Shown: positions 312-51,345, counted from the stretch's first letter. The stretch: DNA of 64,000 nt from Planctomycetota bacterium (GCA_013112555.1 JABFGK010000001.1:1026581-1090580); one strand, 5' to 3'. Program-made: numbers and translations. The notes: generated from the sequence alone by a model not told the origin.

Positions 312-319
312 CCCCCAAA

Positions 320-525
320 GCCCGTCATCCGCGCGCCCCGCGGATGGCGGGGTATCACATCACCATACCGCCTCGCAAAAACCACGCCCCCGAGCCAAGC
401 CCACGGATTCCAATCCGTGGGGTAACTCCTTCTTATAACCTCCTCTCCCCCGCACCACCCCGCTCCCCCCCAAAGCCCCGTCATCCGCGCCCCCGCGCCA
501 AGCCCACGGATTCCAATCCGTGGGG
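320..525 (+). repeat. Intergenic hairpin-repeat cluster (module C, linker, module E, truncated C, E)
   Basis: C = CCCGTCATCCGCG..CGCGGATGGCGGGG at 320-354. E = CCCACGGATT-CC-AATCCGTGGG at 399-424 and 503-525. The same C-linker-E composite recurs at 2331-2440 and repeatedly in 4540-5300. Confidence 0.85.
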
Positions 526-555
526 TCTCCCCTCACTCCATATCACCCCTCCCCC

Positions 556-2330: not shown

Positions 2331-2527
2331 CGCCCCGTCATCCGCGCCCCTCGCACGGGGGGGGGCGGGGTATCACAACACCACACCGCCTCAAATCAAC
2401 CATCCCCCCGTGCAAGCCCACGGATTCCAATCCGTAGGGTAACTCCCTCATATCCCCTCCTCTCCCCCCGCACCCCTCTCTCCCCGAACGCCCCGTCATC
2501 CGCGCGCCCCGTGGATGGTGGGGTATC
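2331..2527 (+). repeat. Intergenic hairpin-repeat cluster (degenerate C, E variant, C variant)
   Basis: CCCCGTCATCCGCGCCCC... at 2331-2373; CCCACGGATTCCAATCCGTAGGG at 2417-2439; CCCCGTCATCCGCGCGCCCCGTGGATGGTGGGG at 2481-2527. Confidence 0.8.
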
Positions 2528-2653: not shown

Positions 2654-4516
2654 ATGCACCTCCGACACATAATCGTCACACTTACCCTGACGACACTCCT
2701 CACAACAGCCTGCACATCAGGTCAGCAACATCAACAGGTCAATCTCGAAATCACCGCCGATCCGCCGTTGCAATTCTCACTCGATTCACTCCCGGAGGCA
2801 TTCGATCGACTCCGTGCTTGGCGACAGCTGCGCGTTACCGCGCCGGCCATCATCACGCTCTTTCCCGGCCGCTACACACTCACCGATCCACTTGTCCTCA
2901 ATCCATCACTCATCGGCGATGGCCTGACCATCAGGAAGTACTACAACGCCGAACCTGACTCCGTCATCCTCACCGGCGGCAGACCAATCGAAAACCTCTC
3001 ACTCCATCACGCAACCGGCACCTGGCAAACCACTATCCCTGACGTTGCCAACGGAGACTGGTGGTTCGAAGAACTCTTTGCCGACCTCACACCACGTACC
3101 CGTGCCCGTCACCCCAATACCGGATATGCCCGCGTCGTCTCAGCCGGCCCCGACAACCGAACGTCCTTCACCTTCAATCCCGACGAAATCCCAGCAGCGC
3201 ACATCGACACCATCACCAACACCGAAGTCGTCTTCTTCCACGACTGGTCCACTTCACGAATGACCATTGCCGATATTAATACCGACACCAACACGATCAC
3301 ACTCGCCAACCCGATCGGCTGCAAAGCCCCGCACTATGCCATCACCAACTTCGAAAAACATCCGCGATTCTACATCGAAGGTAGCACAGCACTTGTCGAC
3401 ACACCCGGCGAATGGGAACTCGACCGCACCACCGGCCACTTTGTCTACAAACCGCTGCCCGGCGAGACATTCGATAACACCAACCTGATAGCCCCGGTCG
3501 CCCCCTCGCTTATTAACATCATCGGGATCCACGGCTCACCGGCAACCAATGTCACACTCGACGGCCTCACCTTTGCCCACTCCAACTGGCCGATTCCCTC
3601 CTATGGCTACGCCGAGGGGCAGGCAGCCTTCTACGAGCAACGCGATAAACAAGGAAGCGACGGCACCCGCGACCCCGTCCCCGCAGCCATCCACCTCGAA
3701 TGGGCCGACAACTGCACCATCTCCAACTGCACCGTCTCATCCGTCGGCGGGACCGGCATCTGGGTAGGACCGGGCTGTAACGACAACACCATCTCAGGTA
3801 CCACGGTCCGACACGCCGGCGCCAACGGCATCATGGTCGGCGAACCAATGGGCCGCCTCGTCAACGGCAAACACTGGTGGCAGGAAGCCCCACAACAGGC
3901 TGCCACAGGCAACACGGTCAAAAACTGCCTCGTCGAATCCTGTGGCCGACGCTTCTTCGGTGCCGTCGGCATCTGGGTCGGCCTGGCGCAACAGACCCAG
4001 GTAGCCAATTGCGAAGTCCGCGACTTGCCCTACACAGGCATCTCCGTCGGCTGGCGCTGGGACGAAACACCGACACCCTGCCAAGCAAACATCATCGAGT
4101 CAAACCACATCCACCACGTCATGCTAAGCCTCTCCGACGGCGGCGGAATCTACACACTCGGCAAACAACCCGGCACCGTCCTCCGAAACAACGCGATCCA
4201 CGACATCGTCCGCAACGCCGGCCGAGCACCCTCCAACGGCATCTTCTTCGATCAGGGCTCCACCGATCTACTGATCGAAGGCAACTTCTTCTGGAACATC
4301 GATACCACGCCGCTCCGCTGGCACTGGACATACCAGAACGTCGTCCGCAACAACACCTTCGTCATACCAGAGGGGCAGCAGTTCGCCTATTACAACCGTG
4401 CCAAGGGCCAGGACATTACCTACGAGGATAACGCAATCACTGCACCTGCAACCTGGGATCCAACCGACCCCGACAACCCCGCAGCCGCCATCATCCACCA
4501 CGCCGGCCCACAATAA
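2654..4516 (+). CDS. Secreted right-handed parallel beta-helix repeat protein (possible lipoprotein; glycan-active fold)
   Basis: 620-aa ORF with signal peptide MHLRHIIVTLTLTTLLTTAC (Cys20, imperfect lipobox). Successive beta-helix turns: NCTISNCTVSSVGGTGIWVG, NNTISGTTVRHAGANGIMVG, VKNCLVESCG..GAVGIWVG, VANCEVRDLPYTGISVG, IIESNHIHHVM..DGGGIYTLG, LRNNAIHDIV...NGIFFD. Confidence 0.8.
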   Translation: MHLRHIIVTLTLTTLLTTACTSGQQHQQVNLEITADPPLQFSLDSLPEAFDRLRAWRQLRVTAPAIITLFPGRYTLTDPLVLNPSLIGDGLTIRKYYNAEPDSVILTGGRPIENLSLHHATGTWQTTIPDVANGDWWFEELFADLTPRTRARHPNTGYARVVSAGPDNRTSFTFNPDEIPAAHIDTITNTEVVFFHDWSTSRMTIADINTDTNTITLANPIGCKAPHYAITNFEKHPRFYIEGSTALVDTPGEWELDRTTGHFVYKPLPGETFDNTNLIAPVAPSLINIIGIHGSPATNVTLDGLTFAHSNWPIPSYGYAEGQAAFYEQRDKQGSDGTRDPVPAAIHLEWADNCTISNCTVSSVGGTGIWVGPGCNDNTISGTTVRHAGANGIMVGEPMGRLVNGKHWWQEAPQQAATGNTVKNCLVESCGRRFFGAVGIWVGLAQQTQVANCEVRDLPYTGISVGWRWDETPTPCQANIIESNHIHHVMLSLSDGGGIYTLGKQPGTVLRNNAIHDIVRNAGRAPSNGIFFDQGSTDLLIEGNFFWNIDTTPLRWHWTYQNVVRNNTFVIPEGQQFAYYNRAKGQDITYEDNAITAPATWDPTDPDNPAAAIIHHAGPQ

Positions 4517-4539
4517 ATCAACCTCACCCCCTCCTCATT

Positions 4540-5300
4540 TCCGTCATTCCCGCGCACGCGGGAATCCATCTTCTCTCCCCCGTAAAGCCCCGTCATCCGC
4601 GCCCCGCGGATGGCGGGGTATATCACAACACAACACCACACCGCCTCGCAAAAACCACACCCCCGCGCAAGCCCACGGATTCCAATCCGTGGGGTATTAC
4701 CCTCTCCCCCTGCACACCATCCCTTTATCCGTCATTCCCGCGCACGCGGGAATCCATCTTCTCTCCCCCGTAAAGCCCCGTCATCCGCGCCCCGCGGATG
4801 GCGGGGTATCTCACAACACCACACCGCCTCGCAAAAACCACACCCCCGCGCAAGCCCACGGATTCCAATCCGTGGGGTATTACCCTCTCCCCCTGCACAC
4901 CATCCCTTTATCCGTCATTCCCGCGCACGCGGGAATCCATCTTCTCTCCCCCGTAAAGCCCCGTCATCCGCGCCCCGCGGATGGCGGGGTAAATCACAAC
5001 ACAACACCATACCGCCTCGCAAAAACCACACCCCCGCGCAAGCCCACGGATTCCAATCCGTGGGGTCTCTTCTTCCCCCTCACCTCATCACCCCGCACCC
5101 CGCTCCCCCGTAAGGCCCCGTCATCCGCGCCCCGCGGATGGCGGGGTATCTCACAACACCACACCGCCTCGCAAAAACCACACCCCCGCGCAAGCCCACG
5201 GATTCCAATCCGTGGTGTCTCTTCTTCCCCCTCACCTCATCACCCCGCACCCCGCTCCCCGTAAAGCCCCGTCATCCGCGCCCCCGCGGATGGCGGGGTA
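4540..5300 (+). repeat. Tandem array of composite hairpin repeats (three full ~183-188-bp units D-C-linker-E, then two shorter units lacking D)
   Basis: Unit starts TCCGTCATTCCCGCGCACGCGGGAATCC at 4540, 4728 and 4911 (periods 188 and 183). Each unit holds D (ATTCCC-N8-GGGAAT), C (14-bp stem), a conserved 45-nt linker CACAACACCACACCGCCTCGCAAAAACCACACCCCCGCGCAA, and E. Units from 5069 replace D with TCTCTTCTTCCCCCTCACCTCATCACCCCGCACCCCGCTCCCC. Confidence 0.9.
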
Positions 5301-6498
5301 AATCCCACCACCTCCCCTCAACCCCTCCCCCCCACCTCCAAAAATACTCCTCCCCATCAACCCGCTGCCGACACAGGCCTTACACACTCACGCGAAACAA
5401 TATCCAAACAAAAACCAAACACCCCTCTTGACAGCCGGCTGCCGGGCTGTACATTGATGAACAACCCAACGCATCAGCACATCCAACAATCAAAGGAAGG
5501 AAAGGAGACGCACGACCCGAACCGACAAAGCAAAAACAAAAACAACAACAACCACGTAAAAAAGCATACCAACCATCGTCAGCCCTGCTGACAATGGCAC
5601 GAAAGAACGGACGGCATGGCCCGGCGCTGTGGAGTGGCCGGGAACCAGTGTGCTGAGAAGTCCTCGCGAGCCAGTAAATGTGTATGTGTGTGCGTATGTC
5701 TATACGTTCGTCTGTATCCTGTGTACACCCGTACACATCCGTGGATACACCTGCATACCCATACACAAACGGCACGCGATCTCTTTCTCAGGCACAAACG
5801 CTCTTGCAACTGGCAATCATTGCAGGACGGTCCGGAGTGCGTGCCGTGGATCCCGGGTTGAGAGTGATGGTCAGGAAAGAGACGGTCTGGATCGATTGTG
5901 CACCGTCTGTGCCTGTTGCGGGAGCATCGGAGATGACCTTCCACTCCGTGCGGGTCGTACCCTCAGCAAGCACAGGAAATGTCGACCACCGGGCTGCATG
6001 CCAGGGTGCACCGCGCATGGAGCTGTTCTAATGTATGTGATGGTTGCAACGTCTGATTCACCGATCAATCAGGCACGGGCCGAACGGCAAACATCGTGCG
6101 GAACAAAACGCACCTGTGCGCGCACAGGACCCTGCCGCTCGTCACCCACCGCTGATCGAAACGTCGAATCAGGTACACACGCAATCAGCCACGTGCATGC
6201 CCGGAAGCGATCGACGGCGTGACGTCTGCATCCGACATCGCCTGACATACATCACATTTCCTTGTGAGTGTCCACACGCACCTCGACTGAAAAACACGTG
6301 TCATGTGCACATGCATGTGCCCGCAATCTGCCACGGGAGCGTTCAAAAAAGGGTTCCAGTCGGACAAGTGAATGGTGCCCAGTCACACCGTCTCCCAACC
6401 GGCTCGTACCATGCCACACCTTCCCAAACCCGGGTGGGCCTGCCCGTCCTTCTTCCGGTTGCTTCCCCCTGGTTGATGCTGCATGCAACCACACCCCC

Positions 6499-6585
6499 GC
6501 GCCAAGCCCACGGATTCCAATCCGTGGGGTCTCTTCTTCCCCCTCACCCCATCACCCCGCGCACCGCGGATGGCGGGGGCGGGGA
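6499..6585 (+). repeat. Hairpin repeats (E plus C-like) upstream of the metal ATPase
   Basis: CCCACGGATTCCAATCCGTGGGG at 6507-6529; CCCCGCGCACCGCGGATGGCGGGGG at 6555-6580. Confidence 0.75.
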
Positions 6586-6655
6586 AGGCAGGGGCCCCAC
6601 GCAGCAAACACCACAATCAGGTGACGACCGGAAAGGAGAAGCAGGGGAGGATCAC

Positions 6656-9030
6656 ATGACACGGCTACAATCGCGCATGGAGAAAACGGTCTCCCGCCAT
6701 GAGCAACAGACACAATCGGCATCGGCCGAACCGCTGTCCCTGCAGCCTGCGCCCTCCCCTCCACCCACATCACCCGATGCTGGCCAAGACGTCAATCCGG
6801 CTGCTGCCGAGTCCTGCCAACACAGATGCCTCGGGCGATGCCTCATCATCCCCATCGAGGGAATGCAGTCGCGCCGCTGCGAACGCATCATCAACCGAAT
6901 GCTCAAGACTCGACACAAAATCACCGGCTGGGCCTCCTATGCCGCCGGGGTCGTGCGCATCGAAAGCACCAACGTCATCCCTCCGCTGGCCGAACTGGCA
7001 GACACACTCGCAAAACGTGGCTACCGCCTCCTCTATCAGGATGCCTGGCCCTGCGGACACGATGACCCGACCCAACCAACCGCCCCGTGCCATGATCGTG
7101 TCGCCACAAAGCAGAAACCGGGCCTCATCAACCGACTCCTCCCGGCCTCGATCAGCGCCGCCGGCGCGCCCCTGGCCACCGTCCTCGTCGGCGGGCTGCT
7201 GCTGGCAATCGGCTTCGTCCTCCGCCTGACCGGCCAACCGATGTGGGCATGGATTCCCCCGCTGGCAATCGCAGCCGTACTCACCAGCCTGCAGACATTC
7301 CCCTCTGCCGTCCGATCACTCCTGAACGTCACCCTCGATGTTGATGTGCTGATGTTCGTCGCTGCAGCCGGTGCCACCTGGCTCGGCCATGCCGAGGAAG
7401 GCGTCTTCCTCCTGTTCCTCTTCGGACTCGGGACCGCCGGCGAGCACATGGCCCTCGGTCGCGCACGCCATGCCATCGAAGCACTGCGCGATGTCGCGCC
7501 CGAAAACGCTCGCCTCATCGATGACGACGGCAACGAGCGCATGATCCCGGCCGCAAACGTGCGCATCGACGATCAACTCCTCGTCCTCCCATTCGAACGC
7601 TTTCCCGCAGACGGTGCCGTCATCGCAGGCCGCTCCGCCGTCGACCAGGCAGCCATCACCGGCGAGTCCATCCCCGTCGAAAAGGATGTCGGCGACATCG
7701 TGTTTGCCGGCAGCATCAATGGTGATTCCCAGATCCTCTTCCGCGCCACCAGGCCGGCCGGTGATTCCACCCTCAGCCGACTCATTCGGCTCGTCGAAGT
7801 GGCTGAAACCGAAAAAAGCCCGGCCCAGCAACTCACCGATCGCGTCGAGCGCTGGTACGTTCCCACAGTACTGGCACTCACCATTGCCGTCATCGTCATC
7901 CCGCCGCTTGCCTGGAACGAATCCTGGAGTGAGTGGTTCTATCGCGCGATGGCATTCCTCACCGCTGCCTCCCCCTGTGCCATTGCCATCGGCGGGCCTG
8001 CCGCCGTCTTGTGTGGCATCGCACGCTCGGCACGGATCGGCGTGTTAATAAAGGGTGGGGGCCCGCTCGAAACACTCGGTCGCGTCCGGGCCGTCTGCTT
8101 TGATAAAACCGGCACCCTCACAGCCGGCAAGCCGCGCGTCACGAATATCGTCCCACTTACCGAAACCGTGACCCCCGACCAGGCTCTCGCATGGGCAGCC
8201 TCGATCGAAGCAGAAACCACCCACCCGCTGGCCGCAGCCATCGTCACAGCTGCCCGGGATCGGAATCTAACAATCCCCGATGCCCGTGACGTCAGGCAAA
8301 TTACCGGCATGGGTGCCGAGGGGTATATTAACGATGATGAGATAACCGTCGGGCGCCTCACCGAGCAACTGAGCGCACGCATGACAGATGCACAGGCACA
8401 GGAGATTGCCGACATTGCAGCCCAGGGGCGCACCATCGTCTGCCTGACACGGAACGGGGAGCCGCTGGCCGTGTTCGGCATTGCCGATGAACCGCGCCCC
8501 GAAGCAAAAGAAACGGTGGCCGAACTTCGACGCCAGGGGATGACCCACGTGTCGATGCTCACCGGCGACCGTCAGGCCGTTGCCGAAGCGATCGCTGCCC
8601 GGCTCGGGATCGATCGGGTCTATGCCGACCTCATGCCCGAAGACAAACTGCGCGCCATCGAGGAACTGAGTAACGAACATGAGACGGCCATGGTCGGCGA
8701 CGGCGTCAATGACGCACCCGCACTGGCCCGTGCTGATGTCGGGATCGCAGTGGGGGAGCCGGCGCCGACGTCGCCATGGAGACTGCCGATGTCGTTCTAA
8801 TGGGGCAGACGATCGAGCGCCTGCCTGATGCAATCGCCATCTCCCGCCTGACACGAAGTATTACATTCCAGAACCTCGTGATTGCGCTGGGCGTAATCGC
8901 CGTCGTGGCCCCGATGGCCGTCACCGGCCACGCCTCACTCGGCATCGCCGTCCTGCTGCACGAAGGCTCGACCGTCGTCGTCGTCCTTAATGCCCTGCGC
9001 ATCCTTCGCTGGGGCCGAAAACGCAAGTAG
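6656..9030 (+). pseudogene. P1B-type heavy-metal translocating ATPase (SPC/HEGST signature, P1B-4-like), reading frame broken once near the 3' end
   Basis: Degenerate HMA-like N-domain (CLIIPIEGMQSRRCERIINRM), TGES (AITGESIPVEK), SPC (LTAASPCAIAIG), DKTGT (CFDKTGTLT), GDGVNDAP. The frame breaks after ...ADVGIAVG at the G5 run 8752-8756. Adding one G gives ...GIAVGGAGADVAMETADVVLM..., which continues in ORF 8776..9030 (…LLHEGSTVVVVLNALR). Start taken at ATG 6656 behind GAAAGGAG; the 6044 start in the ORF track reads through repeat DNA. Confidence 0.85.
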
Positions 9031-9076
9031 GGCCACATGGTCGAAGGACGTATGATCAAACGTTACCTCCTGCAAG

Positions 9077-9465
9077 CCGGACAAGCCGCGTCCCGCGGAT
9101 TGTCCGGGTCTCCCCACTCCCGTAGCCCCCGGCTCTGCCGGGGGGATGATGCGCAAGCATCATGCCATGCCTCACCTCCCACAAGCAGGGCAAGACATGC
9201 CCCGCGGATGGCGGGGTCTCCTTTACCTTCACCCCCTCCTTTTCTCCGTCATTCCCGCGCACGCGGGAATCCAGCCTCTCTCCTCCCTCGCCCGCCAGCG
9301 CACGAACGTAGCCGGCGGCTTCAGCCGCCGGAACAGGCACACGCCGCGAGCGCACGCACCGCCCGGAGGGCGGACGAAGTGAAACACAGAACATGTACCC
9401 ACAACGGGGCACATGCAATGTGCCCCTACCCTCCGTCAATCCCGCGCTCGCGGGAATCCAGCCGG
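9077..9465 (+). repeat. Dense mosaic of hairpin repeats (modules A, P, B, C, D, F, G, H, D-variant)
   Basis: A CCGGACAA..TTGTCCGG 9077-9108; P CCCCGGC-TCT-GCCGGGG; B ATGATGC-GCAA-GCATCAT; C-half ~9200-9217; D 9246-9275; F CCGGCGGC-TTCA-GCCGCCGG; G CCGCCC-GGA-GGGCGG; H GGGGCACAT-GCA-ATGTGCCCC; D-variant CAATCCCGCGCTCGCGGGAATCC ~9437-9460. Confidence 0.85.
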
Positions 9466-9512
9466 GTAGGTCAGGAGGAGGTCATCCGAGTCCTGACATC
9501 AGTGGCTGACGG

Positions 9513-10022
9513 ATGGTCCTTGATATTAATGTGAATCTCACAATAAAGATAATCCGTGTCACCGCTGCCGTCATCTTCGTGATGACGTTTATCACGTCGA
9601 ACTACACTTCCAACAGCGTGTACAAATGGGCGAGCCGTCCAATCGGAGGGATCCGGCAGGTCGAACTGCACGTCGGTGACGGCGAGATCGACATCCTGTG
9701 GACCAGGGCGCGTTCGGCCAATCCGAATGCGTGGTACGTCACACCGGCCCGCCTTACCGTGCATTTTGTGCATCACCGGGTCAGGGGAATCAGGAAGCCG
9801 GTCTTCCGGTTGTCCCACCCGGGCTGGACGCTGACCCTCCCCTTCTGGTTGATCATTCTCGTCAGCGGGGCAGCCGCGTTTGCACTCAGCATCAGTGATC
9901 TGCGACGGCACCTTCGTAGCGCGCAGGGCAAGTGCCCACGGTGCGGCTACGACCTGCGCGGCAACCGGGATGATGAGAGCGGCTGTCCGGAGTGCGGGTA
10001 TGGGAGAGAGAAGGATGAGTAG
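9513..10022 (+). CDS. Hypothetical membrane protein with C-terminal zinc-ribbon (CPRCGYDLRG...CPECG)
   Basis: 169-aa ORF. One clear TM (LTLPFWLIILVSGAAAFALSI) is followed by CxxC-x15-CxxC. The start is uncertain: ATG 9513 has a weak RBS, and ATG 9582 is an alternative. Confidence 0.6.
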   Translation: MVLDINVNLTIKIIRVTAAVIFVMTFITSNYTSNSVYKWASRPIGGIRQVELHVGDGEIDILWTRARSANPNAWYVTPARLTVHFVHHRVRGIRKPVFRLSHPGWTLTLPFWLIILVSGAAAFALSISDLRRHLRSAQGKCPRCGYDLRGNRDDESGCPECGYGREKDE

Positions 10023-10108
10023 CCGGGCAGGTCAGGACGAGGTCCTCAGAGCCCTGATAGGATCTACTGCCGAATCTGTATACGTAGTTGCACAGTGCCC
10101 GCGTTCCG

Positions 10109-11080
10109 CTACTTGTATGAACTTGCAACGGTGGATAAATCGCATTTGTCGATGCTTTCACTGTGAAGCGGGCGGTGCCACTCACATCGCGTGACGCCAA
10201 CAGTTGTATTCCAGGGTGTCTCAATTTCACTAAGAGGAACAGGCATATAAAACGCCTCCTCGCTCAGAGAAAAACCATGCATCAGGCGAAGTCTGCTTAT
10301 TACGTTATTCAGAGACCATGATGCAAGTTGTAGCTTCAATACCGTCGCCTCTGCACTCCAGTTTAGTGACACTTGCCTTAGCGCTACGTGAGGACGCCGC
10401 GGTGACGGGAGCTTGCCATCGAATGTGTCTACAGTGTAAAACGTAGAACCATGTGCACTTCCTCCCAGTATTCTCATGTCCTCCGCTGCTGCAGGTACCC
10501 CTGGAACGGTTTCAGGCCCGAAAGAGAAGGTAAAACCACCAGCGCCAAGCCTGTACCCGTGCTTGATACTGTTATATTCGGCGCGGAAGTCCTTGCTCAC
10601 GTACTCGGCTGCTAATCGACGCCAGAGCAACGAGAAAGCGTCTACAAGTCCGTCTGGTGCATTTGAAAGATCGGCATGAACATACGCAGACACGTTCTCC
10701 CATGATGACTTCTCTAGACCGACGCGATTGAGTATGTGCTTGCCGTTGCTTATCGAAGCAACTAGTGCGAGCAAATCCGCATTGCGGTACAGCTGTAGCC
10801 ATCCCAGTGGGTAGCTGGGTGCCTGTAGTAACGCCCCAAGCAAGGCAAACAGAGCTTCCAGACATTGATAATACGACACTCTGACCGCTATTGAGGCATA
10901 ACGAGATCTGTCTGTTGTGATCTCTGGGTCAAGTAGAGTGGCGATGAATGAGAAGTACTCAGCATCTATTCTAGCAAGGTAGTTCTTCGCCTGGTCTGCA
11001 AGATTCCAGCCATGAACGCAATATGGTGTATCTACAACAAGGAAGCAGTAGTGCGGCGCTTTTGTCTGTTGAGTGCTCAT
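10109..11080 (-). CDS. Hypothetical protein, orphan, in a low-GC patch
   Basis: 323-aa ATG-initiated ORF. It is the only long ORF in ~10.02-11.4 kb, where composition is visibly AT-richer than the flanks, with many A/T-ending codons. I recognise no motif with confidence. Confidence 0.6.
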   Translation of the reverse strand: MSTQQTKAPHYCFLVVDTPYCVHGWNLADQAKNYLARIDAEYFSFIATLLDPEITTDRSRYASIAVRVSYYQCLEALFALLGALLQAPSYPLGWLQLYRNADLLALVASISNGKHILNRVGLEKSSWENVSAYVHADLSNAPDGLVDAFSLLWRRLAAEYVSKDFRAEYNSIKHGYRLGAGGFTFSFGPETVPGVPAAAEDMRILGGSAHGSTFYTVDTFDGKLPSPRRPHVALRQVSLNWSAEATVLKLQLASWSLNNVISRLRLMHGFSLSEEAFYMPVPLSEIETPWNTTVGVTRCEWHRPLHSESIDKCDLSTVASSYK

Positions 11081-11757
11081 TCTGAATGTGCCAACTGTAG
11101 GGTATTAAGAGGGAGAGCGTTATTATACAAACAAACGCGGCTGAGATCGCTATATGGGAACCAGTAGTCGGCAGGTTCGTCTATCCGCTAGCAAGGCGAA
11201 TGTCAACAAGTCTGGGTCGATATTCTCGTACCGCTATAAGCCTATTGCCATAGTATATGTCAGGCATCTGTTAGGTCAAGAGAAAGGGACCAGGTAATAC
11301 GAGAACTTGCCCCGTAGTTTGTGTCCTCCTGCGCCCCTCGGGGGCGTTGGCACGAACGACGCGACGGAGGAGTCGTGTCATTTGGCACCTGTTGAGGACT
11401 CGCCCCGGCTCTGTCAGGGCTTGCGTTCTGACCTACACCTCTGATTCACAACCGACGCGCGGGATCGTCTAGTCGATTCTGTTGTATCACCCTGGATGCC
11501 CGCGTTCGCGAGCATGACGAGCGAGGTAATGGTGTATGACTTGTCCCTATTCAGGCAGTTACGCGCCCGGATGTGGTCCCTGGATCTTCGGCCCTCGGGA
11601 TCGGTGTGCGCAAACCTCGGGGCGGTGGAGCCCCTATAGTGTGCAGGCAGGCGCGAGCCTGCACCGGGCCGCTGCGGGGGATGGATCACATCGGATGTCG
11701 GGGCGGCGACCTGTCAGAATATATACGTGAATTTCCAGATATCCGGAGGTACAGGAT

Positions 11758-17893: not shown

Positions 17894-18164
17894 TTGCTCC
17901 TTATCTGTACCTGCACGTGGTGAGTTGCGTCGGAGAGCAACTGTTTCTCCGCGAGGTGGTTTCTGCGACTGCCCAGTTCTCATCGATGCGTGCCCGTCAG
18001 GCAGCGGGAATCTGAGCGAGGCTGACAACCACATCACCTCTCACTCTGAAACACGCTCGTCAGCGACGGAAGCGGCAGCGAGTTGAGCGATTGCCTCAGG
18101 AAATGTGTGTTTTGACAAAGATTTAATCTTGCATCCGGACGTGGCAGGGGTTTTCTGATGATGT

Positions 18165-18460
18165 TGTGTGGCACTTCGTCCGCCCTCCGGGCGGGGTGTG
18201 TTCGTGGAGCGTGCCCTGTCCGGCGGCTGACCTCCCCCAACCGCCGGCTACGGTCGTGCGCCCTGTCGGGCGAGGGAGGAGTGAAGATGGATTCCCGCGT
18301 TCGCGGGAATGACGGAGGAGTGAGGAAACATTGCATGATGCTTGCGCATCATTATCCTCCCGGCAGAGCCGGTGCGTATGGCACGAAGTGCCATGCAGCG
18401 ATCTCATCGTGATTTAGCGGCACGTTGTCCCGCCGCCCCCCGGCAGAGCCGGGGCGAACC
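18165..18460 (-). repeat. Hairpin-repeat mosaic, reverse-complement copy of the 9128-9400 composite (G, F, D, B, P) plus an extra P
   Basis: The reverse complement of 18165-18385 aligns module by module with 9128-9400 (see findings). GGATTCCCGCGTTCGCGGGAATGACGG at ~18288-18314; ATGATGCTTGCGCATCAT ~18336-18353; CCCGGCAGAGCCGG twice. Confidence 0.8.
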
Positions 18461-21098: not shown

Positions 21099-21161
21099 TG
21101 TGCGATCCGGCTGGGGGGCTGTACGCGCAGCCGGGAGCAATGGGCGTGATTTGAGAATGAC

Positions 21162-21198
21162 CCGGACAATCCGCGATGCGGCTTGTCCGGCTTTTTTT
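21162..21198 (+). terminator. Rho-independent terminator after the flotillin gene (A-family hairpin plus T-tract)
   Basis: CCGGACAA-tccgcgatgcggc-TTGTCCGG (21162-21190) followed by CTTTTTTTGT. Confidence 0.65.
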
Positions 21199-21229: not shown

Positions 21230-21973
21230 TCAGTTGGTGTCGGTGGGTTTGTTGAGCAGGAGGCCGGTCAGGGCCAGGACGGCCCCGGCGCCGATGACCC
21301 AGAGTCGGCGTGGGTTGGGTCGGAGTGAGGCATCGCTCGGGGTCGGCGTGGCTTCGTACTCGGAAGTCGTCGTCGTTGTGGTCGTGGCCACAATCAAAGG
21401 GTCGTCGTGACGCGTCGTGAGGGCCACCGGCGAACACCAGCGGCGGAGTATCGTGTTCTTGTACTCCGGGGCCGGCACCGGGTCACGGGGGACGATCGTA
21501 TCTGAGATCCACTGATCGACCCGTGCATCAAGCGATACGCCGACGATGGCCAGCGCTTCGGCATCGGACGGGATCTGGTTGAAGTAGGCAGCGGCCAGCC
21601 GTTCGACGAGGACGGGGTCAGCGTCGATCACTTCATCCTGGAATCGGCAATAGGCCTCGAGCATGTCGAGGGCAGCCAGTTCGTCCTGTTCGAGGACGGC
21701 GGTCTGGTAGTCGAGTTGGGCCAGGGTGTCGGCCGGCGGGATGAGGATGGCAGCCGATATGAGGGCCAGCCCGGTGAGCAGGAAGAGCCAGCCGGGGTCG
21801 ATGACGGCGCGCAGCAGGCGATGATGCCGGGGGGCAGGCGGCACCGGCGGTGAATGGCGAGGATCGTGGATTCGGTCGTGACTGGTGGTCATCCTCATCA
21901 TCATCGGTTGCGGGTCGGATTGGTCATGAATGGGAGGGGCGGCTAGTGTGAGCCGGGAGTTGTGAATGGTCAT
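21230..21973 (-). CDS. Hypothetical membrane protein (two TM segments, Thr-rich linker)
   Basis: 247-aa ORF with TMs WLFLLTGLALISAAILI and LWVIGAGAVLALTGLLL and a T7 run. The start is uncertain: ATG 21973 overlaps the divergent ORF start, and ATGs at 21904-21892 are alternatives. Confidence 0.5.
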   Translation of the reverse strand: MTIHNSRLTLAAPPIHDQSDPQPMMMRMTTSHDRIHDPRHSPPVPPAPRHHRLLRAVIDPGWLFLLTGLALISAAILIPPADTLAQLDYQTAVLEQDELAALDMLEAYCRFQDEVIDADPVLVERLAAAYFNQIPSDAEALAIVGVSLDARVDQWISDTIVPRDPVPAPEYKNTILRRWCSPVALTTRHDDPLIVATTTTTTTSEYEATPTPSDASLRPNPRRLWVIGAGAVLALTGLLLNKPTDTN

Positions 21974-22056
21974 GATGAATGATGCGCATCGTCAAACTGA
22001 ACAGGCCCTCGCCTCCAGCCTGTCTCCCGAGGGGAGCGGTGAGGTGGAAGAGGTGG

Positions 22057-22245
22057 GACAGGAGGAGCCCGCTCCCTCACGGTCGCGGCTCGTCGGCGAG
22101 GGGGGACAGAAGGAGCCCGCTCCCTCACGGTCGCGGCTTGTCGGAGAGGTGGAACAGAAGGAGCCCGCTCCCTCACGGTCGCGGCTCGTCGGCGAGGGGG
22201 GACAGAAGGAGCCCGCTCCCTCACGGTCGCGGCTTGTCGGAGTGA
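22057..22245 (+). repeat. Four tandem copies of a 48-bp unit containing a GAGCC(C)GC...GCGGCTC hairpin
   Basis: GAGCCCGCTCCCTCACGGTCGCGGCT starts at 22065, 22113, 22161 and 22209 (period exactly 48). Translated it reads EPAPSRSRLVGEGGQK x4 on + and RAATVRERAPSVPP x4 on -. Confidence 0.85.
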
Positions 22246-23156
22246 CGGGCGAGACGCCTGTGCCACTGAAGAGTCGCTGCGGGTATGACCTGGTGGCTGT
22301 GGATCTGGATGGGACGCTGTTTGATCGGGATGGGCACATCAGCAAGCGGAATCTGGCAGCCGTGGCTCGGGCGCGGGAAGCCGGAGTACACGTCGTCGTG
22401 TGTACCGGCCGGAGTCTGTCAGAGGCGGCCGGGTCATTGGACCCGCTGCAGATTGACGGGCCGGTGATCACGGCCGGGGGGGCGATGACGGTTGATGCGG
22501 TGAGCGGCCGAACGATGCTGCGGGCGGACATGCCGGACGAGTTGGTGGTTCGGCTTACGCGGTTTCTATGCGGTCGCAGTGATCATGCGGTCCTGTTGCT
22601 GAAGGATCGTTTTGAGACCGGGGTTGACTATCTGGTGGTTGGAGATGGGCTGCTGGACCCGGCCAGCGAGTGGTGGTTTGCGAATATGCCGGTCGTGGTT
22701 GAGCGTGTGGGCGAGATTGGGGACGATCCGTATGCCGGTCACACCGTTCGGGTCGGGCTGGTGAAGCCGGCACGGGCGATGGCGGGTGTGGTGCGAGAAT
22801 TGGGCACTGTATTCGGCAATGAGGTGTTTCTGCATCACTTCCCGGCGTTGAAGGGGGCTGAGGACGGGCCGGGCCGGCTCGATCAATCGGTTCATTTGCT
22901 GGAGGTGTTCTCGCCGGAGACGAACAAGTGGAGTGCGGTGGCCGGTCTTGCGGGTCAGTACGGAATTCCAACATCGCGAGTCGCTGCGATCGGTGATGAG
23001 CACAATGATCTGGCCATGATTGATGGGGCGGGGCTTGGGATCGCGATGGGCAATGCGATTGAATCGATCAAGCATGCGGCCCAGCGTGTGACGGATGACA
23101 ATGAGCATGACGGGGTGGCAACGGCGCTGGAGCGGATTCTGTCCGGCGAGTGGTAG
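22242..23156 (+). CDS. HAD-IIB (Cof-type) phosphatase
   Basis: Motif I DLVAVDLDGTL, motif II VVCTGRS, motif IV IGDEHNDLAMIDGAGLGIAMGNA. The ORF is open from ATG 21966, but that N-terminus consists of the tandem repeat. The true start is probably a GTG at 22242, 22260 or 22293 (uncertain). Confidence 0.8.
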   Translation: MTGETPVPLKSRCGYDLVAVDLDGTLFDRDGHISKRNLAAVARAREAGVHVVVCTGRSLSEAAGSLDPLQIDGPVITAGGAMTVDAVSGRTMLRADMPDELVVRLTRFLCGRSDHAVLLLKDRFETGVDYLVVGDGLLDPASEWWFANMPVVVERVGEIGDDPYAGHTVRVGLVKPARAMAGVVRELGTVFGNEVFLHHFPALKGAEDGPGRLDQSVHLLEVFSPETNKWSAVAGLAGQYGIPTSRVAAIGDEHNDLAMIDGAGLGIAMGNAIESIKHAAQRVTDDNEHDGVATALERILSGEW

Positions 23157-27414: not shown

Positions 27415-27690
27415 AGCGGAAGCGCTCCGCTGCGCGTCGCGGTTGATTGGCACTGGATTCCCGCGTGCGCGGGAATGACGAGGAGGGGGAGGGGGCACAC
27501 GGGTGGTTCTCGTCGCTGTCGCGACTCGTGCCAGCCGTGCCACCCGGGAGTGGGGAGACCCGGACAATCCGCGCGGGGCGCGCGGCTTGTCCGGCTTGTG
27601 TTTTGGAGGGGGCGGGGGGTGGGTGCACCAGGCATGATGCTTGCGCAGCATTCCCCCCCCGGCAGAGCCGGGGGCTACGGGTGTGGGGAA
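27415..27690 (-). repeat. Hairpin-repeat mosaic (R, D, Q, A, B, P modules, minus orientation)
   Basis: GGATTCCCGCGTGCGCGGGAATGACG 27454-27480; CCGGACAATCCGCGCGGGGCGCGCGGCTTGTCCGG 27560-27594; ATGATGCTTGCGCAGCAT; CCCGGCAGAGCCGGGGG. The same order recurs at 37960-38165 and 35460-35600. Confidence 0.85.
27560..27606 (+). terminator. Possible intrinsic terminator for the sigma-kinase operon (A-family hairpin plus T-rich tail)
   Basis: 16-bp stem with one mismatch, followed by CTTGTGTTTTGG, about 155 nt after the kinase stop. Confidence 0.4.
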
Positions 27691-27702
27691 TGAGGGGGAG
27701 GT

Positions 27703-28423
27703 CTACAGGGTGTTGGTCACCCAGTTGAGGAATGCGGATTTGCCGTCTTTGAGGTTGTGCAGGAGCAGGTCGGGGCGGGCCGGTTCGAGTTGGTCATGGG
27801 AGCAGCCGCCGGTGGCGACTGCAGCGACACGGCAGCTGTTGGTCTGGGCGCACTCGATGTCGGCGAGTGTGTCCCCGATGATGATGACATTTGAGGGATC
27901 AATGGAAGTACCGGTGTGTTGTTCGTAGCGCTGCACGCCGACCGGTGGGAGGTCGTTGCGGGTCGGGCCGTCGATGCCCCAGACGTTGATGGTGAACCAA
28001 TCGGGGTTGATGCCGACGGATTCGAGTTTGAGTCGGCCGTTTTCGGGGTAGTTGCCGGTGAGCAGGCCGAGTGTGAAGCGGTCGGGTTGGGCCCGGAGTG
28101 CGTCGAGGAGGCTGAGGACGCCGGGGAGGGCATGGACGTTGTGGTTCGGTGAGTTGACGGTCTGCTTCAGGTGGACGTGTGTGGCAGCGGAAGCGTTCGT
28201 GGGTGTCGGCGGTATTGGGGATGCCGTTGCGATCTGCCAGGGAGGCCCAGATGAGTGGGTCGAGGCGGCCGGCGTAGGAGATTTCCTCGTTGGCAAAGGT
28301 ATCGCCGAAGAGATCGCGGCCGGCTGCGAGGAAGGCAGCCCAACCGGAGCCGTCGCCGTGGTAGAGGGTCCCGTCGATATCGAAGAGCAGGAGGAGGATG
28401 CGGTGGTGGTTTTGGTTTTCCAT
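27703..28423 (-). pseudogene. HAD-superfamily phosphatase (phosphoglycolate-phosphatase-like), frame broken near 28181-28200
   Basis: The N-terminal part is in ORF 27899..28423 (LLLFDIDGTLYHGDG...). The C-terminal part is in the frame of ORF 27703..29148 (…HVHLKQTVNSPNHNVHALPGVLSLLDAL…LLTGNY…VIIIGDTLADIECA…). The junction on the minus strand is CGCTTCCGCTGCCACACACGTC, and removing one nucleotide restores THERF-AATHVHLKQ. Confidence 0.7.
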
Positions 28424-28446
28424 AGGGTTGGAGTGTAGGAGGGGGG

Positions 28447-28640
28447 AGCGTTAGCCGCGAGGCGGGAGCCGAGCGCGGGGGAGACCCCACGGATTGGAAT
28501 CCGTGGGCTTGGCGATCCGGGAGAGGAGATGAGAAGAGAAGGTGGATTCCCGCGTGCGCGGGAATGACGGAGGGGGCGAGGAGAAGAGAGGATGGATTCC
28601 CGCGTGCGCGGGAATGACGGAAGGGGGTGGGAATGACGGA
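28447..28640 (-). repeat. Hairpin-repeat mosaic (I-E composite, two D copies)
   Basis: GTTAGCCGCGAGGCGGGAGCCGAGCGCGGGGGAGACCCCACGGATTGGAATCCGTGGGC (also at 30341 and 51163); GGATTCCCGCGTGCGCGGGAATGACGG at ~28544 and ~28594. Confidence 0.85.
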
Positions 28641-30340: not shown

Positions 30341-30420
30341 AGTGTTAGCCGCGAGGCGGGAGCCGAGCGCGGGAGGGAGACCCCACGGATTGGAATCCGT
30401 GGGCTTGGCGATCCGTGGGC
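30341..30420 (-). repeat. I-E composite hairpin repeat
   Basis: GTGAGTGTTAGCCGCGAGGCGGGAGCCGAGCGCGGGAGGGAGACCCCACGGATTGGAATCCGTGGGCTTGGCGATCCGTGGGC. Confidence 0.85.
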
Positions 30421-33739: not shown

Positions 33740-33813
33740 GGTGAGGGGAGGTGAGGAGGGGTGCGGAGGAGGGTGAGTGGGAGGAATGGCGGCCCTCACC
33801 CCCAGCCCCTCTC

Positions 33814-35258
33814 TGTATAGACCGGGGACATAGGTAACAGGTGTTCGGAGACATGGGTGACACTTTTCGTATGCTGGTTTCTTCACCGATTGAGGAGACC
33901 AGGCATGCCGTGGAAGGAAGTGTCAACCGTGTCGGAGCGACAGGAGTTTGTACACCTGGCCAGCGTCGAGGGGGCCAACATCGCCCGTCTCAGTCGCGGG
34001 TTCGGAATCAGCCGCAAGACGGCCTACAAGTGGCTCGATCGGTATCGTCGGGGAGGGGATGAGGCGTTGATTGACCGGTCGCGTCGGCCGACCCGATCAC
34101 CGGCTCAGACGCCAGTGTCAGTGGAGTCGGCGGTGCTGGCCATCCGGAGTCGCCACCCGGTCTGGGGTGGCCGCAAGATTCGTCACCGTTTGCTGGCGTT
34201 GGGCCATCATGAGTCGGTTCCGGCCGCCAGCACCATCACCGGGATTCTGCGTCGCCATGGGCTGATTGATCCAGCCGAAGCGAGCAAACACACGCCGTGT
34301 CGTCGCTTCGAACATGGGCAACCCAACGATCTGTGGCAGATGGATTTCAAAGGGCATGTCGCGATGAGCGATGCTCTCGAGGATCGTCGCCGAGTGTATC
34401 CGCTGACGGTGCTGGATGATCACTCGCGGTATGTCGTCGGGCTGCGCCTGTGGGCATGAGCGTGAAGCGACGGTTCGTTCGGAGTTGACGGGCATCTTCC
34501 AGCACTACGGGCTGCCGCGTCGAATGCTGATGGATAACGGCTCGGTCTGGCGTTCCGACACGCCGCATCGGCACACGAAGTTGACTGCGTGGTTGTTGCG
34601 TCTGGGTGTTCGCGTCACACATAGCCGCCCGGTGCACCCGCAGACGCTGGGCAAGGATGAACGGTTTCATCGGACGCTGAAAGCTGAGGCGATGACGGGT
34701 CGAACCTTCCCGGGCCTGGCCCACTGGCAGCGTCACTTCGATCGCTGGCGGACGGTGTACAACTGTGAGCGGCCGCACGAGGCATTGGACATGCATCCGC
34801 CGGTGAGCCGGTATCGTGGCAGTGACCGTGAGATGCCATCCCGGTTGCCGGCCATCGAGTATTCGCCGAGTGATGTGGTTCGCAAGGTGGGCCAGGGAGG
34901 CTGGATCACGTACGGTGGGATCGAGTACAAGATTGGGAAGGCCTTCGTCGGCGAGTATGTGGCGCTGCGTGCGATGGTCCGCGACGGGTGGTTCGAAGTG
35001 TACTTCTGCCACGAGCGGCTCGGCCGGCTCAACATTCGGAGTCTGACGCGTCGATCGGGCCGGCGTGGCGGGATGGAACGGGTGGAGCCATGTCCGGCGG
35101 GCCCGGGGTTGGGACGCGTGAGGTGAATGGCGGCTGCGTTGGCGTCACTCGCTCCGCTCGTGACGCTCCCTCCGCCCGCCATTCACCGGCCCACCGGCGT
35201 ACCATCATGTGTTACCCATGTCCCCGAACGGGTGTCACCCATCTGTCCGGTCCAAACA
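33814..35258 (+). mobile_element. IS481-family insertion sequence (1445 bp) with ~50-bp imperfect terminal inverted repeats and 5-bp target duplication
   Basis: Left end TGTATAGACCGGGGACATAGGTAACAGGTGTTCGGAGACATGGGTGACAC. Reverse complement of the right end TGTTTGGACCGGACAGATGGGTGACACCCGTTCGGGGACATGGGTAACAC. CTCTC occurs at 33809-33813 and 35259-35263. A DDE transposase lies inside. Confidence 0.8.
33905..35126 (+). pseudogene. IS481-family DDE transposase/integrase, frame broken near 34441-34452
   Basis: HTH (ANIARLSRGFGISRKTAYKWLDRY), then DDE residues in LWQMDFKG, LMDNGSVW and GKDERFHRTLK. ORF 33857..34459 ends ...VVGLRLWA* and the protein continues +1 in ORF 34416..35126 (...CGHEREATVRSELTGIFQHYGLP...). 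Confidence 0.8.
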
Positions 35259-35263
35259 CTCTC

Positions 35264-35600
35264 CCGCGGGGAGAGGGGGGCAAGAGTGCCAATCGGGAGA
35301 TTGGCGGTCCGGGGGTTGACAAAGCCGCCACCGGTGGTGGCGGTAGAGAGAAGAGAAGATGGATTCCCGCGTGAGCGGGAATGACGGGGGGGGGGAGGGC
35401 GTTTACCCCACGGATAGGAATCCGTGGGCTTGGGGGAGAGGGAGAGGGGGTGAAGGGGGGAAGAGACCCGGACAATGCGCGGGGCGCGGCTTGTCCGGCT
35501 TGTGGTTTTGGAGGGGGTGTGGGTGCACAAGGCATGATGCTTGCGCATCATTCTCTCCCCCCGGCGGAGCCGGGAGCTAATGGGAGCCGTGCCCCCCGGC
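35264..35600 (-). repeat. Hairpin-repeat mosaic (split palindrome, J, D, E-variant, A, B, P)
   Basis: GCCAATC-GGGA-GATTGGC 35288-35305; GCCGCCACC-GGT-GGTGGCGG 35324-35343; GGATTCCCGCGTGAGCGGGAATGACGG ~35362; CCCCACGGATAGGAATCCGTGGGC 35407-35429; A 35468-35498; ATGATGCTTGCGCATCAT. Confidence 0.85.
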
Positions 35601-35612
35601 GGGAATGACGGT

Positions 35613-37442: not shown

Positions 37443-37688
37443 TGCAATAAGAATGAATCTGTGGTTTCATTCGTACTGGGTCTGATAAGTGTCAGTCGGG
37501 ACGGAGCCGCTGAAGTGTGGGGCCGTGGGGCGCACATCGGCAGCGCTGGGCGCGTCTCCTTTAATTAGGTTAGAGGCCGGGGTGAGGGGCAGGTGGCGAT
37601 AGTTTGTTCGGAGGGAGTACCGGCGTTGAGGGGAGTTATTGGGACGTCGCCGATTTGTTTGGATTGTTTGCTGAGGTGATGGGGACGA

Positions 37689-38200
37689 GCGCCAATCGGG
37701 AGATTGGCGATCCGGGGGGTCACAAAGCCGCCACCGGTGGTGGCGGTAGAAGGGAAGAAGAGAAGATGGATCCCGGCCTGCGCCGGGATGACGGAAGGAG
37801 GGGATGGGGAGGGGAGAGAGGATGCGCTCCGCTCCGCGTCGCGGTAAATTGGGACTGGATTCCCGCGTGCGCGGGAATGACGGGGAGGGGAGGAGAGGAG
37901 AGGAGAGAAGATGGATCCCGGCCTGCGCCGGGATGACGGAGGGAGGGGAGGGGAATGAGGGGTGGGGTATAAGGAGGAGACACGGGTCGGCTTCGTCGCG
38001 TGCGCGACTCACCCGAGCTGTGCCACCCGGGATACCACCCGGGAGTGGGGAGGCCCGGACAATCCGCGCGGTGCGCGGCTTGTCCGGCATGTGGGAGGTG
38101 AGGCATGGCATGATGCTTGCGCATCATTCCCCCGGCTCCGCCGGGGGCTAACGGGAGTGGGGAATGAGAGGATGGATTCCCGCGCACGCGGGAATGACGG
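37689..38200 (-). repeat. Large hairpin-repeat mosaic between the two flagellin genes
   Basis: J pair 37691-37750; GGATCCCGGCCTGCGCCGGGATGACGGA at ~37767 and ~37913 (D-variant); R-D at ~37820-37885; Q-A-B-P at 37960-38160 (A 38055-38087); D 38172-38200. Confidence 0.85.
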
Positions 38201-51159: not shown

Positions 51160-51345
51160 GGGGTGAGTGTTAGCCGCGAGGGGGAGCCGGGGGCGGGGGA
51201 GACCCCACGGATTGGAATCCGTGGGCTTGGGGAGGGGTGGGGAGGAGCGACCCCACGGATTGGAATCCGTGGGCATGGTGAGTCGGGGAGTGGGGAGGAG
51301 CGACCCCACGGATGGGAATCCGTGGGCTTGGGGAGGGGCCGGGGG
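51160..51345 (-). repeat. Hairpin repeats: I-E composite followed by two further E copies
   Basis: CCCCACGGATTGGAATCCGTGGGC at 51203-51225 and 51251-51274; the variant ...GGATGGGAATCC... at 51304-51327. Confidence 0.85.

Follow-up and report, generated by a model that had tools for sequence, protein, structure and literature searches.

A 64,000-nt stretch of the genome of a Planctomycetota bacterium (GCA_013112555.1, JABFGK010000001.1:1026581-1090580), hereafter the window, contains an array of hairpin-forming repeats at 4541-5300, positions being counted from the first letter of the window. The array starts 25 nt beyond the stop codon of a gene for a right-handed beta-helix protein. A match to a sigma-70-like promoter lies ~130 nt beyond the end of the array, which is thus located between a stop codon and the next promoter (Table 1). 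A first-pass annotation of this DNA had proposed a tandem array of ordered modules directly after the beta-helix gene, and this proposal was confirmed by both Tandem Repeats Finder and module mapping. The former reported a repeat at 4540-5066 (period 183, 2.8 copies, 96% matches) and an overlapping repeat at 4946-5300 (period 152, 2.3 copies, 94% matches). Module mapping reads the locus as a genuine tandem array with the order (D-C-L-E-Y)x2, D-C-L-E-X, C-L-E-X, C, in which D, C and E are hairpins, L is a linker and the spacers Y and X, both C-rich, substitute for each other. The composite D-C-L-E-Y (183 nt) constitutes a distinct unit.

The module lengths given previously were right in outline and required small corrections, i.e. 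the spacer between D and C is ~22 nt rather than 20 nt, the C stem is 14-15 bp rather than 14 bp, the linker is 46-52 nt rather than 45 nt and the E stem is 9-10 bp rather than 10 bp. Module D has the sequence CCGTCATTCCCGCGCACGCGGGAATCCATCTTCTCTCC. Module C is a hairpin, CCCCGTCATCCGCG-CCC-CGCGGATGGCGGGG, with one T.G pair; it has the same CGTCAT head as D, but its stem continues through the tag. Linker L is A/C-rich and unstructured, and module E has the sequence CCCACGGATTCCAATCCGTGGG. A D 20-mer with up to three mismatches was found at 12 sites (24 strand matches) as compared to 0.01 strand matches expected, and module E at 14 sites (28 strand matches) as compared to 0 expected, which excludes an origin by chance. 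The units of the array exhibit small differences, with a 5-nt ACAAC deletion in the linker of Unit 2 relative to Unit 1, spacer X in place of Y in Unit 3 and a G>T change of the final stem base of E in Unit 4. Folding of the C-rich strand produced three clean hairpins (z = -5.75), as compared to a z of -1.4 for the G-rich strand; the C-rich strand folds slightly better. A CRISPR array was considered and rejected, as the L, Y and X 'spacers' are themselves repeated at 97-100% identity and are not unique.

The array was then compared between assemblies and with copies elsewhere in the genome. Two contigs of GCA_016743455.1 (uncultured Planctomycetota bacterium), a second assembly of this organism, match the window at 99-100% identity; a literature search on the assembly accessions returned nothing. 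Their array contains exactly one full unit fewer, with slightly different unit variants, i.e. two full plus two short units as compared to three full units in the window, a difference for which assembly collapse is a possible but less likely cause. The array did not, therefore, reduce to a single unit. Module order is also conserved outside the array. A diverged paralogous array ~7 kb upstream of the window start (locus L001, 2716-3023; ~85% identity) has the same cyclic order, E-Y-D-C-L, and between these two arrays the linkers drift, L diverging faster, whereas the hairpins are conserved. The single C-L-E copies described at first pass were recovered, one intact and one decayed (Table 1). 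Short-read contigs from six sequencing runs were 99.95-100% identical to the window and ended inside D or E hairpins; the five independent contigs that bear the beta-helix gene all break off at 4567-4568, within the first D. These repeats are breakpoints of short-read assemblies for this organism. An origin as an assembly artefact of a single repeat, or as a cluster of miniature inverted-repeat transposable elements from a DDE transposon, is very improbable even though short-read assemblies break at repeats and an IS481-family transposase is present in the window (33857-35126). Private variants of the array units are common to two assemblies, and GCA_016743455.1 independently resolves its full and short units; the array is not an assembly artefact. 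The unit ends (i.e. CCGTCAT... and ...CCTTTAT) are not inverted repeats and no target-site duplications surround the single copies, so the earlier suggestion of a MITE-like element did not stand.

Identity and distribution of hairpin D

Repetitive extragenic palindromes (REPs) of the CGTC-1 family are defined by a CGTC tag, an 8-bp stem that starts with AT, a 4-nt loop and a CCA tail, and the Neisseria repeat dRS3 is a member of this family (PMC3733652). All of these features are present in D, in which the 5' CGTC tag and the 3' CCA tail are unpaired. When 15 copies of D from this genome (13 distinct rows) were aligned, G3, T4 and C5 and C26, C27 and A28 were invariant in 15/15 copies. Pairing is retained at all eight stem positions (99% of cells), the first being AU in 13/13 distinct rows and the second UA in 12/13. 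Two stem positions are fully compensated (ATCCCGGC/GCCGGGAT at 37763-37794 and 37908-37939; ATGCTCGC/GCGGGCAT at 11493-11519), and the loops observed were GCAC, GAAC, GCAG, GCTC, TCAC and GTGC. Comparison with the 28-nt Neisseria Transformation Sequence (NTS; CGTCATTCCCGCGMAVGCGGGAATCYRG) identified three exact sites, and nine with the last base left free, whilst the degenerate pattern of the Ssn-related motif (SRM) matched 12 times as compared to 0.65 expected. The NTS is bound and cut in Neisseria by SsnA, a 94-aa GIY-YIG nuclease (Chenal et al. 2025, PMC11893778). Both binding and cleavage by SsnA are restricted to single-stranded DNA (ssDNA) and to the tagged strand. Cleavage occurs upstream of the hairpin and depends most on the three bases 5' of the palindrome, with binding depending most on the C just 3' of it (PMC11893778). 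These critical bases (i.e. GTC 5' of the stem and C 3' of the stem) are exactly the invariant positions of D in this genome. Judged by its sequence, D thus qualifies as a canonical CGTC-1 REP, is truly part of the dRS3 family and matches the NTS. The earlier description of D as having the same form as dRS3 was an understatement, as the tag, stem, loop and tail of CGTC-1 REPs are all present along with the match to the NTS.

The array had also been likened to Neisseria intergenic mosaic elements (NIMEs), in which dRS3 copies (ATTCCC-N8-GGGAAT) flank repeat blocks of ~50-150 bp in arrays and which were reported to be Neisseria-specific (PMC1797815). This likeness was upheld. With D at 4546, 4734 and 4917, the array has two D-bounded blocks (~168 and ~163 nt), the repeat blocks between successive D copies measuring 145-165 nt, and the last two array units are without D. 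The bounding hairpin is CGTCATTCCCGCG-CA(C/G)-GCGGGAATCCA, D being one loop base off the commonest Neisseria 21-mer, the bases critical for SsnA are invariant, and the arrays are intergenic with copy numbers that vary between genomes. Unlike in NIMEs, the host is a Planctomycetota metagenome-assembled genome, the blocks between D copies are built from other hairpin families (i.e. C and E) and the copies are all co-oriented and flip with GC skew, whereas Neisseria-like contigs mix orientations. Similarly to the CGTC-1 REPs of Di Nocera, De Gregorio & Rocco (2013), D is extragenic, present in high copy number and represented by several stem and loop types. That family was reported from five phyla, Planctomycetes not among them, and mostly as head-to-head dimers with negligible numbers of head-to-tail pairs (PMC3733652); in contrast, neighbouring copies here are all head-to-tail and form no dimers. 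The bacterial interspersed mosaic elements (BIMEs) of E. coli are also mosaics of REP hairpins with conserved linker motifs between them, located after genes in variable copy number. In BIMEs, however, the REPs alternate in orientation, are of the GTAG superfamily and have a known RAYT, whereas the present array consists of direct CGTC-type repeats and untagged hairpins.

A NIME-like layout had been considered unexpected in this genome. This was overstated, as the exact D 28-mer occurs in at least ten phyla, with at least 112 stretches in GTDB genomes. The hosts included Bacteroidota/Rhodothermales, Alpha-, Beta- and Gammaproteobacteria, Thermodesulfobacteriota, Gemmatimonadota, Nitrospirota, Chloroflexota, Hydrogenedentota and Phycisphaerae. 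The pattern GTCATTCCCGC-N4-GCGGGAATCC was found in >120 IMG/VR contigs with GC contents of 32-72%. On these sequence matches, the dRS3/NTS hairpin is a cross-phylum motif. In other taxa D avoids divergent regions, which held 7 of the 106 intergenic copies flanked by genes on both sides. Ssn-like genes were detected in seven D-bearing loci of other organisms, one of them partial at the locus end (L137). The complete genes (Table 1) are from Collimonas, Dehalococcoidia, Rubrivirga and three IMG/VR contigs. Both the Collimonas and Dehalococcoidia proteins are ~95 aa in length with a confirmed GIY-YIG domain (PF01541), and their genes are 20 and 210 nt, respectively, from D. These data reproduce the published association between the NTS motif and ssn genes, here seen across phyla.

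Orientation of the repeats and GC skew

Two further hairpin families were identified in the window. Hairpin G (CAAG-CCGGACAAGCCGCG...TTGTCCGG-GTCTC) is longer than E and has the CAAG...GTCTC frame in common with it, and F is a double hairpin, CCCCCGGC-TCT-GCCGGGGG followed by ATGATGC-GCAA-GCATCAT. Of the 16 intergenic regions in the window that measure 130 nt or more, 11 carry such modules, in convergent, tandem and divergent contexts. C and L were observed only within ~17 kb on one side of the switch in GC skew, suggesting local spread.

The GC skew of the window is -0.25 to -0.38 up to ~8 kb and +0.15 to +0.33 from ~18.5 kb. The sign changes once and the cumulative minimum is located at 9.5-10.5 kb. 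In 1-kb windows, values of 0.2-0.38 are about ten times the typical bacterial value. Coding skew on the left is -0.30 for genes of both strands and on the right is +0.23 and +0.17, i.e. nearly independent of gene direction. Without exception, copies of C, D, E, F and G carry their tagged, C-rich form on whichever strand is C-rich, so that strand polarity flips with the GC skew, a feature missed at first pass. Within the ~92 kb of this genome, the polarity was counted over 17-18 intergenic regions. The seven regions on the negative-skew side are all '+' (L001 2716-3023 and 5819; window 312, 2331, 4541, 6487 and 9073-9460), and on the positive-skew side all 10-11 are '-' (Table 1). Agreement of at least 17 regions with the sign of the skew has a probability of <1e-5 by chance. 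The flip occurs in a low-GC interval on the putative replication origin side; the segment at 10.0-11.5 kb (GC 0.51) contains a 323-aa open reading frame (ORF; 10109-11080, '-') with no Pfam match. Strict replichore-type polarity of multiple families, combined with head-to-tail organisation, is a new property of a known REP/NIME element in a new host. In other phyla, D exhibits the same polarity more weakly (70/110 copies), with 11/11 copies in agreement where the local |skew| is at least 0.12. Loci of relatives with 56-62% protein identity (L264-L266) contained none of these modules and had only weak skew.

An association with transcription was also considered. The modules are antisense to '+' genes at 27.4-30.4 kb and sense to '-' genes at 35-52 kb, and are also present in the divergent promoter regions 2331-2525 and 18278-18454, indicating that transcription does not explain the polarity. 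These placements argue against a reading of the array as a transcribed element of the 3' untranslated region that stabilises or terminates the beta-helix mRNA, or of C-L-E as a small structured RNA, the latter having been raised at first pass. The sense strand does produce three strong hairpins between a stop codon and the next promoter-like site, E+X fits a weak terminator pattern (with a weak terminator-like score in Unit 3), REPs are generally found downstream of genes (PMC3733652), and D elsewhere avoids divergent regions. Searches of Rfam, however, returned no matches at the gathering score for the window or at E <= 1 for 4400-5500, linker L has no structure and has changed faster than the hairpins when the paralogous arrays are compared, and it is skew rather than transcription that predicts orientation. 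As the hairpins are near-palindromic, an RNA role cannot explain the polarity. As an account of the array, an RNA element is quite unlikely, although an RNA 3'-end role may coexist with a process driven by Ssn or a HUH transposase. The array is best described as a NIME/BIME-like cluster rather than as a gene, CRISPR array or dedicated RNA locus.

Outside this genome, the exact E 22-mer was found once each in 20 contigs of other organisms (L244-L263; JGI and ENA metagenomes) with GC contents of 0.54-0.72. In these contigs E extends to AAG...CTT, with a T-rich, terminator-like tail in several, and the central CC is on the C-rich strand in 16/17 contigs with |skew| > 0.02. Because E elsewhere is a perfect palindrome except for the central CC, its 'orientation' may be compositional and was not used as support. 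Assignment of the folded strand from counts of wobble pairs and A.C mismatches (15 vs 7, mostly the conserved T.G in C) was too weak and was rejected.

Other repeat clusters and features of the window

The coordinates of the array units, of the other clusters and of the Ssn-like genes are listed in Table 1. G and F travel together, with the same polarity as D, C and E, at 9073-9166, 18333-18454, 21159-21193, 27554-27674, 35463-35551 and 38049-38136. The elements at 27454-28640 are all antisense to the flanking '+' genes. The cluster at 37752-38200 contains a further D whose loop is inverted between assemblies. In comparisons of the window with GCA_016743455.1, both the F loop at 38139 (GGA/TCC) and the D loop at 38186 (TG/CA) are reverse complements whilst the stems are identical. 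These inversions are either a template-switch or flip-flop signature or an assembly difference at a contig end; from the comparison of two assemblies, they provide a hint of hairpin extrusion during replication.

Table 1. Positions of array units, repeat clusters and associated genes (window coordinates unless a locus is named)
Feature	Position	Strand	Parts and remarks
Right-handed beta-helix protein gene, 620 aa	2654-4516	+	Pfam Beta_helix/GH141_M
Array Unit 1, 188 nt	4541-4728	+	D/NTS core 4542-4569 (hairpin 4546-4565); C hairpin 4588-4618; linker L 4621-4671; E hairpin 4672-4693; spacer Y 4696-4728
Array Unit 2, 183 nt	4729-4911	+	D/NTS 4730-4757; C 4776-4806; L 4809-4854; E 4855-4876; Y 4879-4911
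Array Unit 3	4912-5106	+	D/NTS 4913-4940; C 4959-4989; L 4992-5042; E 5043-5064; X 5067-5106
Array Unit 4, 152 nt, C-L-E-X without D	5106-5258	+	C 5116-5146; L 5149-5194; E 5195-5216; X 5219-5258
Terminal C	5257-5300	+	hairpin 5267-5298; loop longer by one C
Sigma-70-like promoter, TTGACA-16-TACATT	5428-5455	+	consensus match only; precedes P-type ATPase gene
Cluster between convergent genes	312-526	+	intact C-L-E 312-425, then C left arm fused to second E
Cluster in divergent promoter region	2331-2525	+	decayed C-L-E 2331-2440 plus C variant with four wobble pairs
Partial unit	6487-6578	+	L end, E, X, C right arm; inside over-extended 5' end of ATPase ORF
Mosaic	9073-9460	+	G, F double hairpin, C right arm, exact NTS 9247-9274, D variant 9433-9460; last '+' copies
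Orientation-flip interval	9460-11493		low-GC (0.51), at cumulative skew minimum; putative replication origin side
Diverged D/SRM	11493-11519	-	one compensated stem pair; first '-' copy
Cluster in divergent intergenic region	18278-18454	-	D (GAAC loop) plus F hairpins
Cluster	27454-28640	-	exact NTS 27453-27480, G, F, E 28484-28507, two tandem D 28535-28620, truncated third
Single E	30380-30403	-	antisense, between '+' genes atpD and thiamine-binding protein gene
Cluster between convergent genes	35352-35611	-	D, E, G, F, truncated D
Cluster between two flagellin genes	37752-38200	-	two D variants with two compensated stem pairs (ATCCCGGC/GCCGGGAT), exact NTS, G, F
Tandem E hairpins	51202-51326	-	three copies, period ~50 nt
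All '-' regions	window 11493, 18278, 21159, 27454-28640, 30380, 35352, 37752-38200, 51202; L269 14905, 16828	-
Ssn-like genes	L161 2494-2778; L169 4687-4971; L187 7235-7492
Ssn-like genes	L012 2855-3106; L045 991-1248; L096 7850-8104

The called 5' end of the P-type ATPase gene (6044-9038) crosses the E-X-C module at 6487-6578, and the true start is therefore probably near 6.6 kb. The protein is 918 aa in the window (6044-8800) as compared to 996 aa in GCA_016743455.1, a difference due to 1-3-nt indels (e.g. of GCT at 7166 and in a G run at 8752). A 48-bp unit with a GGAGC-CC-GCTCC hairpin is repeated four times with 92% identity at 22050-22240, inside the 5' part of a HAD hydrolase ORF (21966-23156), and may represent a further intergenic hairpin array that an over-long ORF call has absorbed. 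The IS481-family transposase is encoded by two overlapping ORFs (HTH/LZ_Tnp_IS481, then rve) and coincides with the gap between the two GCA_016743455.1 contigs. G-rich low-complexity intergenic repeats (GGTGAGGGGA and GAGGGGAGGGGAAT) are present on the G-rich strand at 33740-33784 and 37885-37979, some of which contain GGGGAGGG, fitting the E. coli KOPS pattern GGGNAGGG.

Origin of the array and of its polarity

Polarity that tracks the GC skew ties these repeats to a single-strand, replication-linked process. The array is best read as a recombination-amplified mosaic of REP-class ssDNA hairpins whose orientation is set by a strand-specific process linked to replication, to which we assign a probability of roughly 0.6. 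Growth and shrinkage of the array would occur by unequal recombination or replication slippage between the direct repeats. The leading strand is usually G-rich and T-rich, and the AT skew of the window agrees with the usual leading-strand assignment. Under this rule, the tagged, cleavable and better-folding strand would always be the leading-strand template, and the lagging-strand template, which is exposed as ssDNA, would hold only the complement, which SsnA does not cut. The polarity would then be the mark left by a strand-specific process acting on ssDNA at the fork, most likely in the form of counter-selection of lagging-strand-template hairpins open to attack by an Ssn-type nuclease or the replisome. 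Such a direction is expected if self-cleavage or stable hairpins are selected against on the lagging-strand template. The extreme skew (0.2-0.3) suggests a long exposure of ssDNA, which would sharpen such counter-selection. Any RNA role (i.e. 3'-end hairpins or weak termination by E+X) would come second and would not depend on orientation.

Alternatively, a single-strand HUH (Y1) transposase, either of the RAYT type or of the IS200/IS605 'peel and paste' type, could have spread the modules as non-autonomous elements, with the head-to-tail arrays and the polarity arising from insertion into ssDNA at the fork and not from selection. Hairpins with a 5' tetranucleotide foot recognised as ssDNA, and a replication-linked orientation bias, are features common to REPIN-RAYT and IS200/IS605 systems and the present repeats. 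Transposition of IS200/IS605 is coupled to the lagging-strand template and produces a chromosome-wide orientation bias (PMC3971601; PMC6006769), a Group 2 RAYT REPIN population has been described with the Neisseria dRS3 21-mer taken as its REP (bioRxiv 10.1101/2021.07.10.451892), and co-oriented tandem copies are present here. None of the at least 16 D copies, however, formed an inverted (REPIN-type) pair within ~130 bp, and a tblastn search of the window and ~270 fetched loci with E. coli RayT found nothing beyond one match at E = 0.19. No Y1_Tnp domain was present in the Pfam calls of the window and flanks, covering ~3% of the genome, and no transposase dedicated to CGTC repeats was found by Di Nocera et al. 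(PMC3733652). Furthermore, the tagged strand, if it is the active 'top' strand, is on the leading-strand template, the opposite of IS200/IS608 (PMC3971601). Spread by a HUH transposase is rather unlikely, though a live alternative, as the source of the array and of its polarity.

Several observations weigh against an orientation set by a strand-specific process at the fork. The DNA examined is ~3% of a 2.86-Mb genome. Unlike in the NTS-SsnA system of Neisseria, no Ssn-like GIY-YIG gene was found by motif and tblastn searches in the ~92 kb of this genome. Genomes with the NTS-Ssn system hold a cd10448 GIY-YIG (ssn) gene that the motif typically flanks. Among genomes with >200 SRMs, 81% carry an ssn gene (PMC11893778), and the presence of ssn in this genome is a prior only. 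Small unannotated ORFs beside the D clusters (28052-28438, 9513-10022, 18034-18336, 37467-38111 and L001 3074-3595) gave no GIY-YIG or HUH signal at E <= 1. E, F and G are not NTS-like yet exhibit the same polarity, and so would have strand-specific partners of their own or reflect a more general cause. D copies of both orientations are found side by side in Neisseria-like and many other loci, indicating that active Ssn alone does not enforce polarity. Five DnaA boxes (TTATCCACA, <=1 mismatch) were detected as compared to 6.9 expected, with no cluster at the switch, so that the origin is placed by the sign of the skew alone, and the switch zone is broad, with ~8-18 kb of weak skew. A reversed skew polarity would invert the strand assignment and favour an IS200-like model.

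A wider form of the counter-selection account is possible but doubtful, namely that Ssn nucleases, and possibly other enzymes for C, E, F and G, act on DNA at the replication fork and confine the recognisable strand to the leading-strand template throughout the chromosome, in organisms whose lagging-strand template stays single-stranded for long, of which the extreme GC skew (0.2-0.3) would be the mark here. If true, REP/NIME arrays would be replichore-polar elements similar to KOPS or Chi, with an orientation that reports fork direction. Besides controlling transformation, the dRS3/NTS-Ssn system would then act in connection with replication. The function of REP, BIME and NIME repeats and the spread of CGTC-type repeats have been questions for decades. 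NIME arrays were formerly considered peculiar to Neisseria; NIME-like arrays based on dRS3/NTS can also be built in a Planctomycetota genome.

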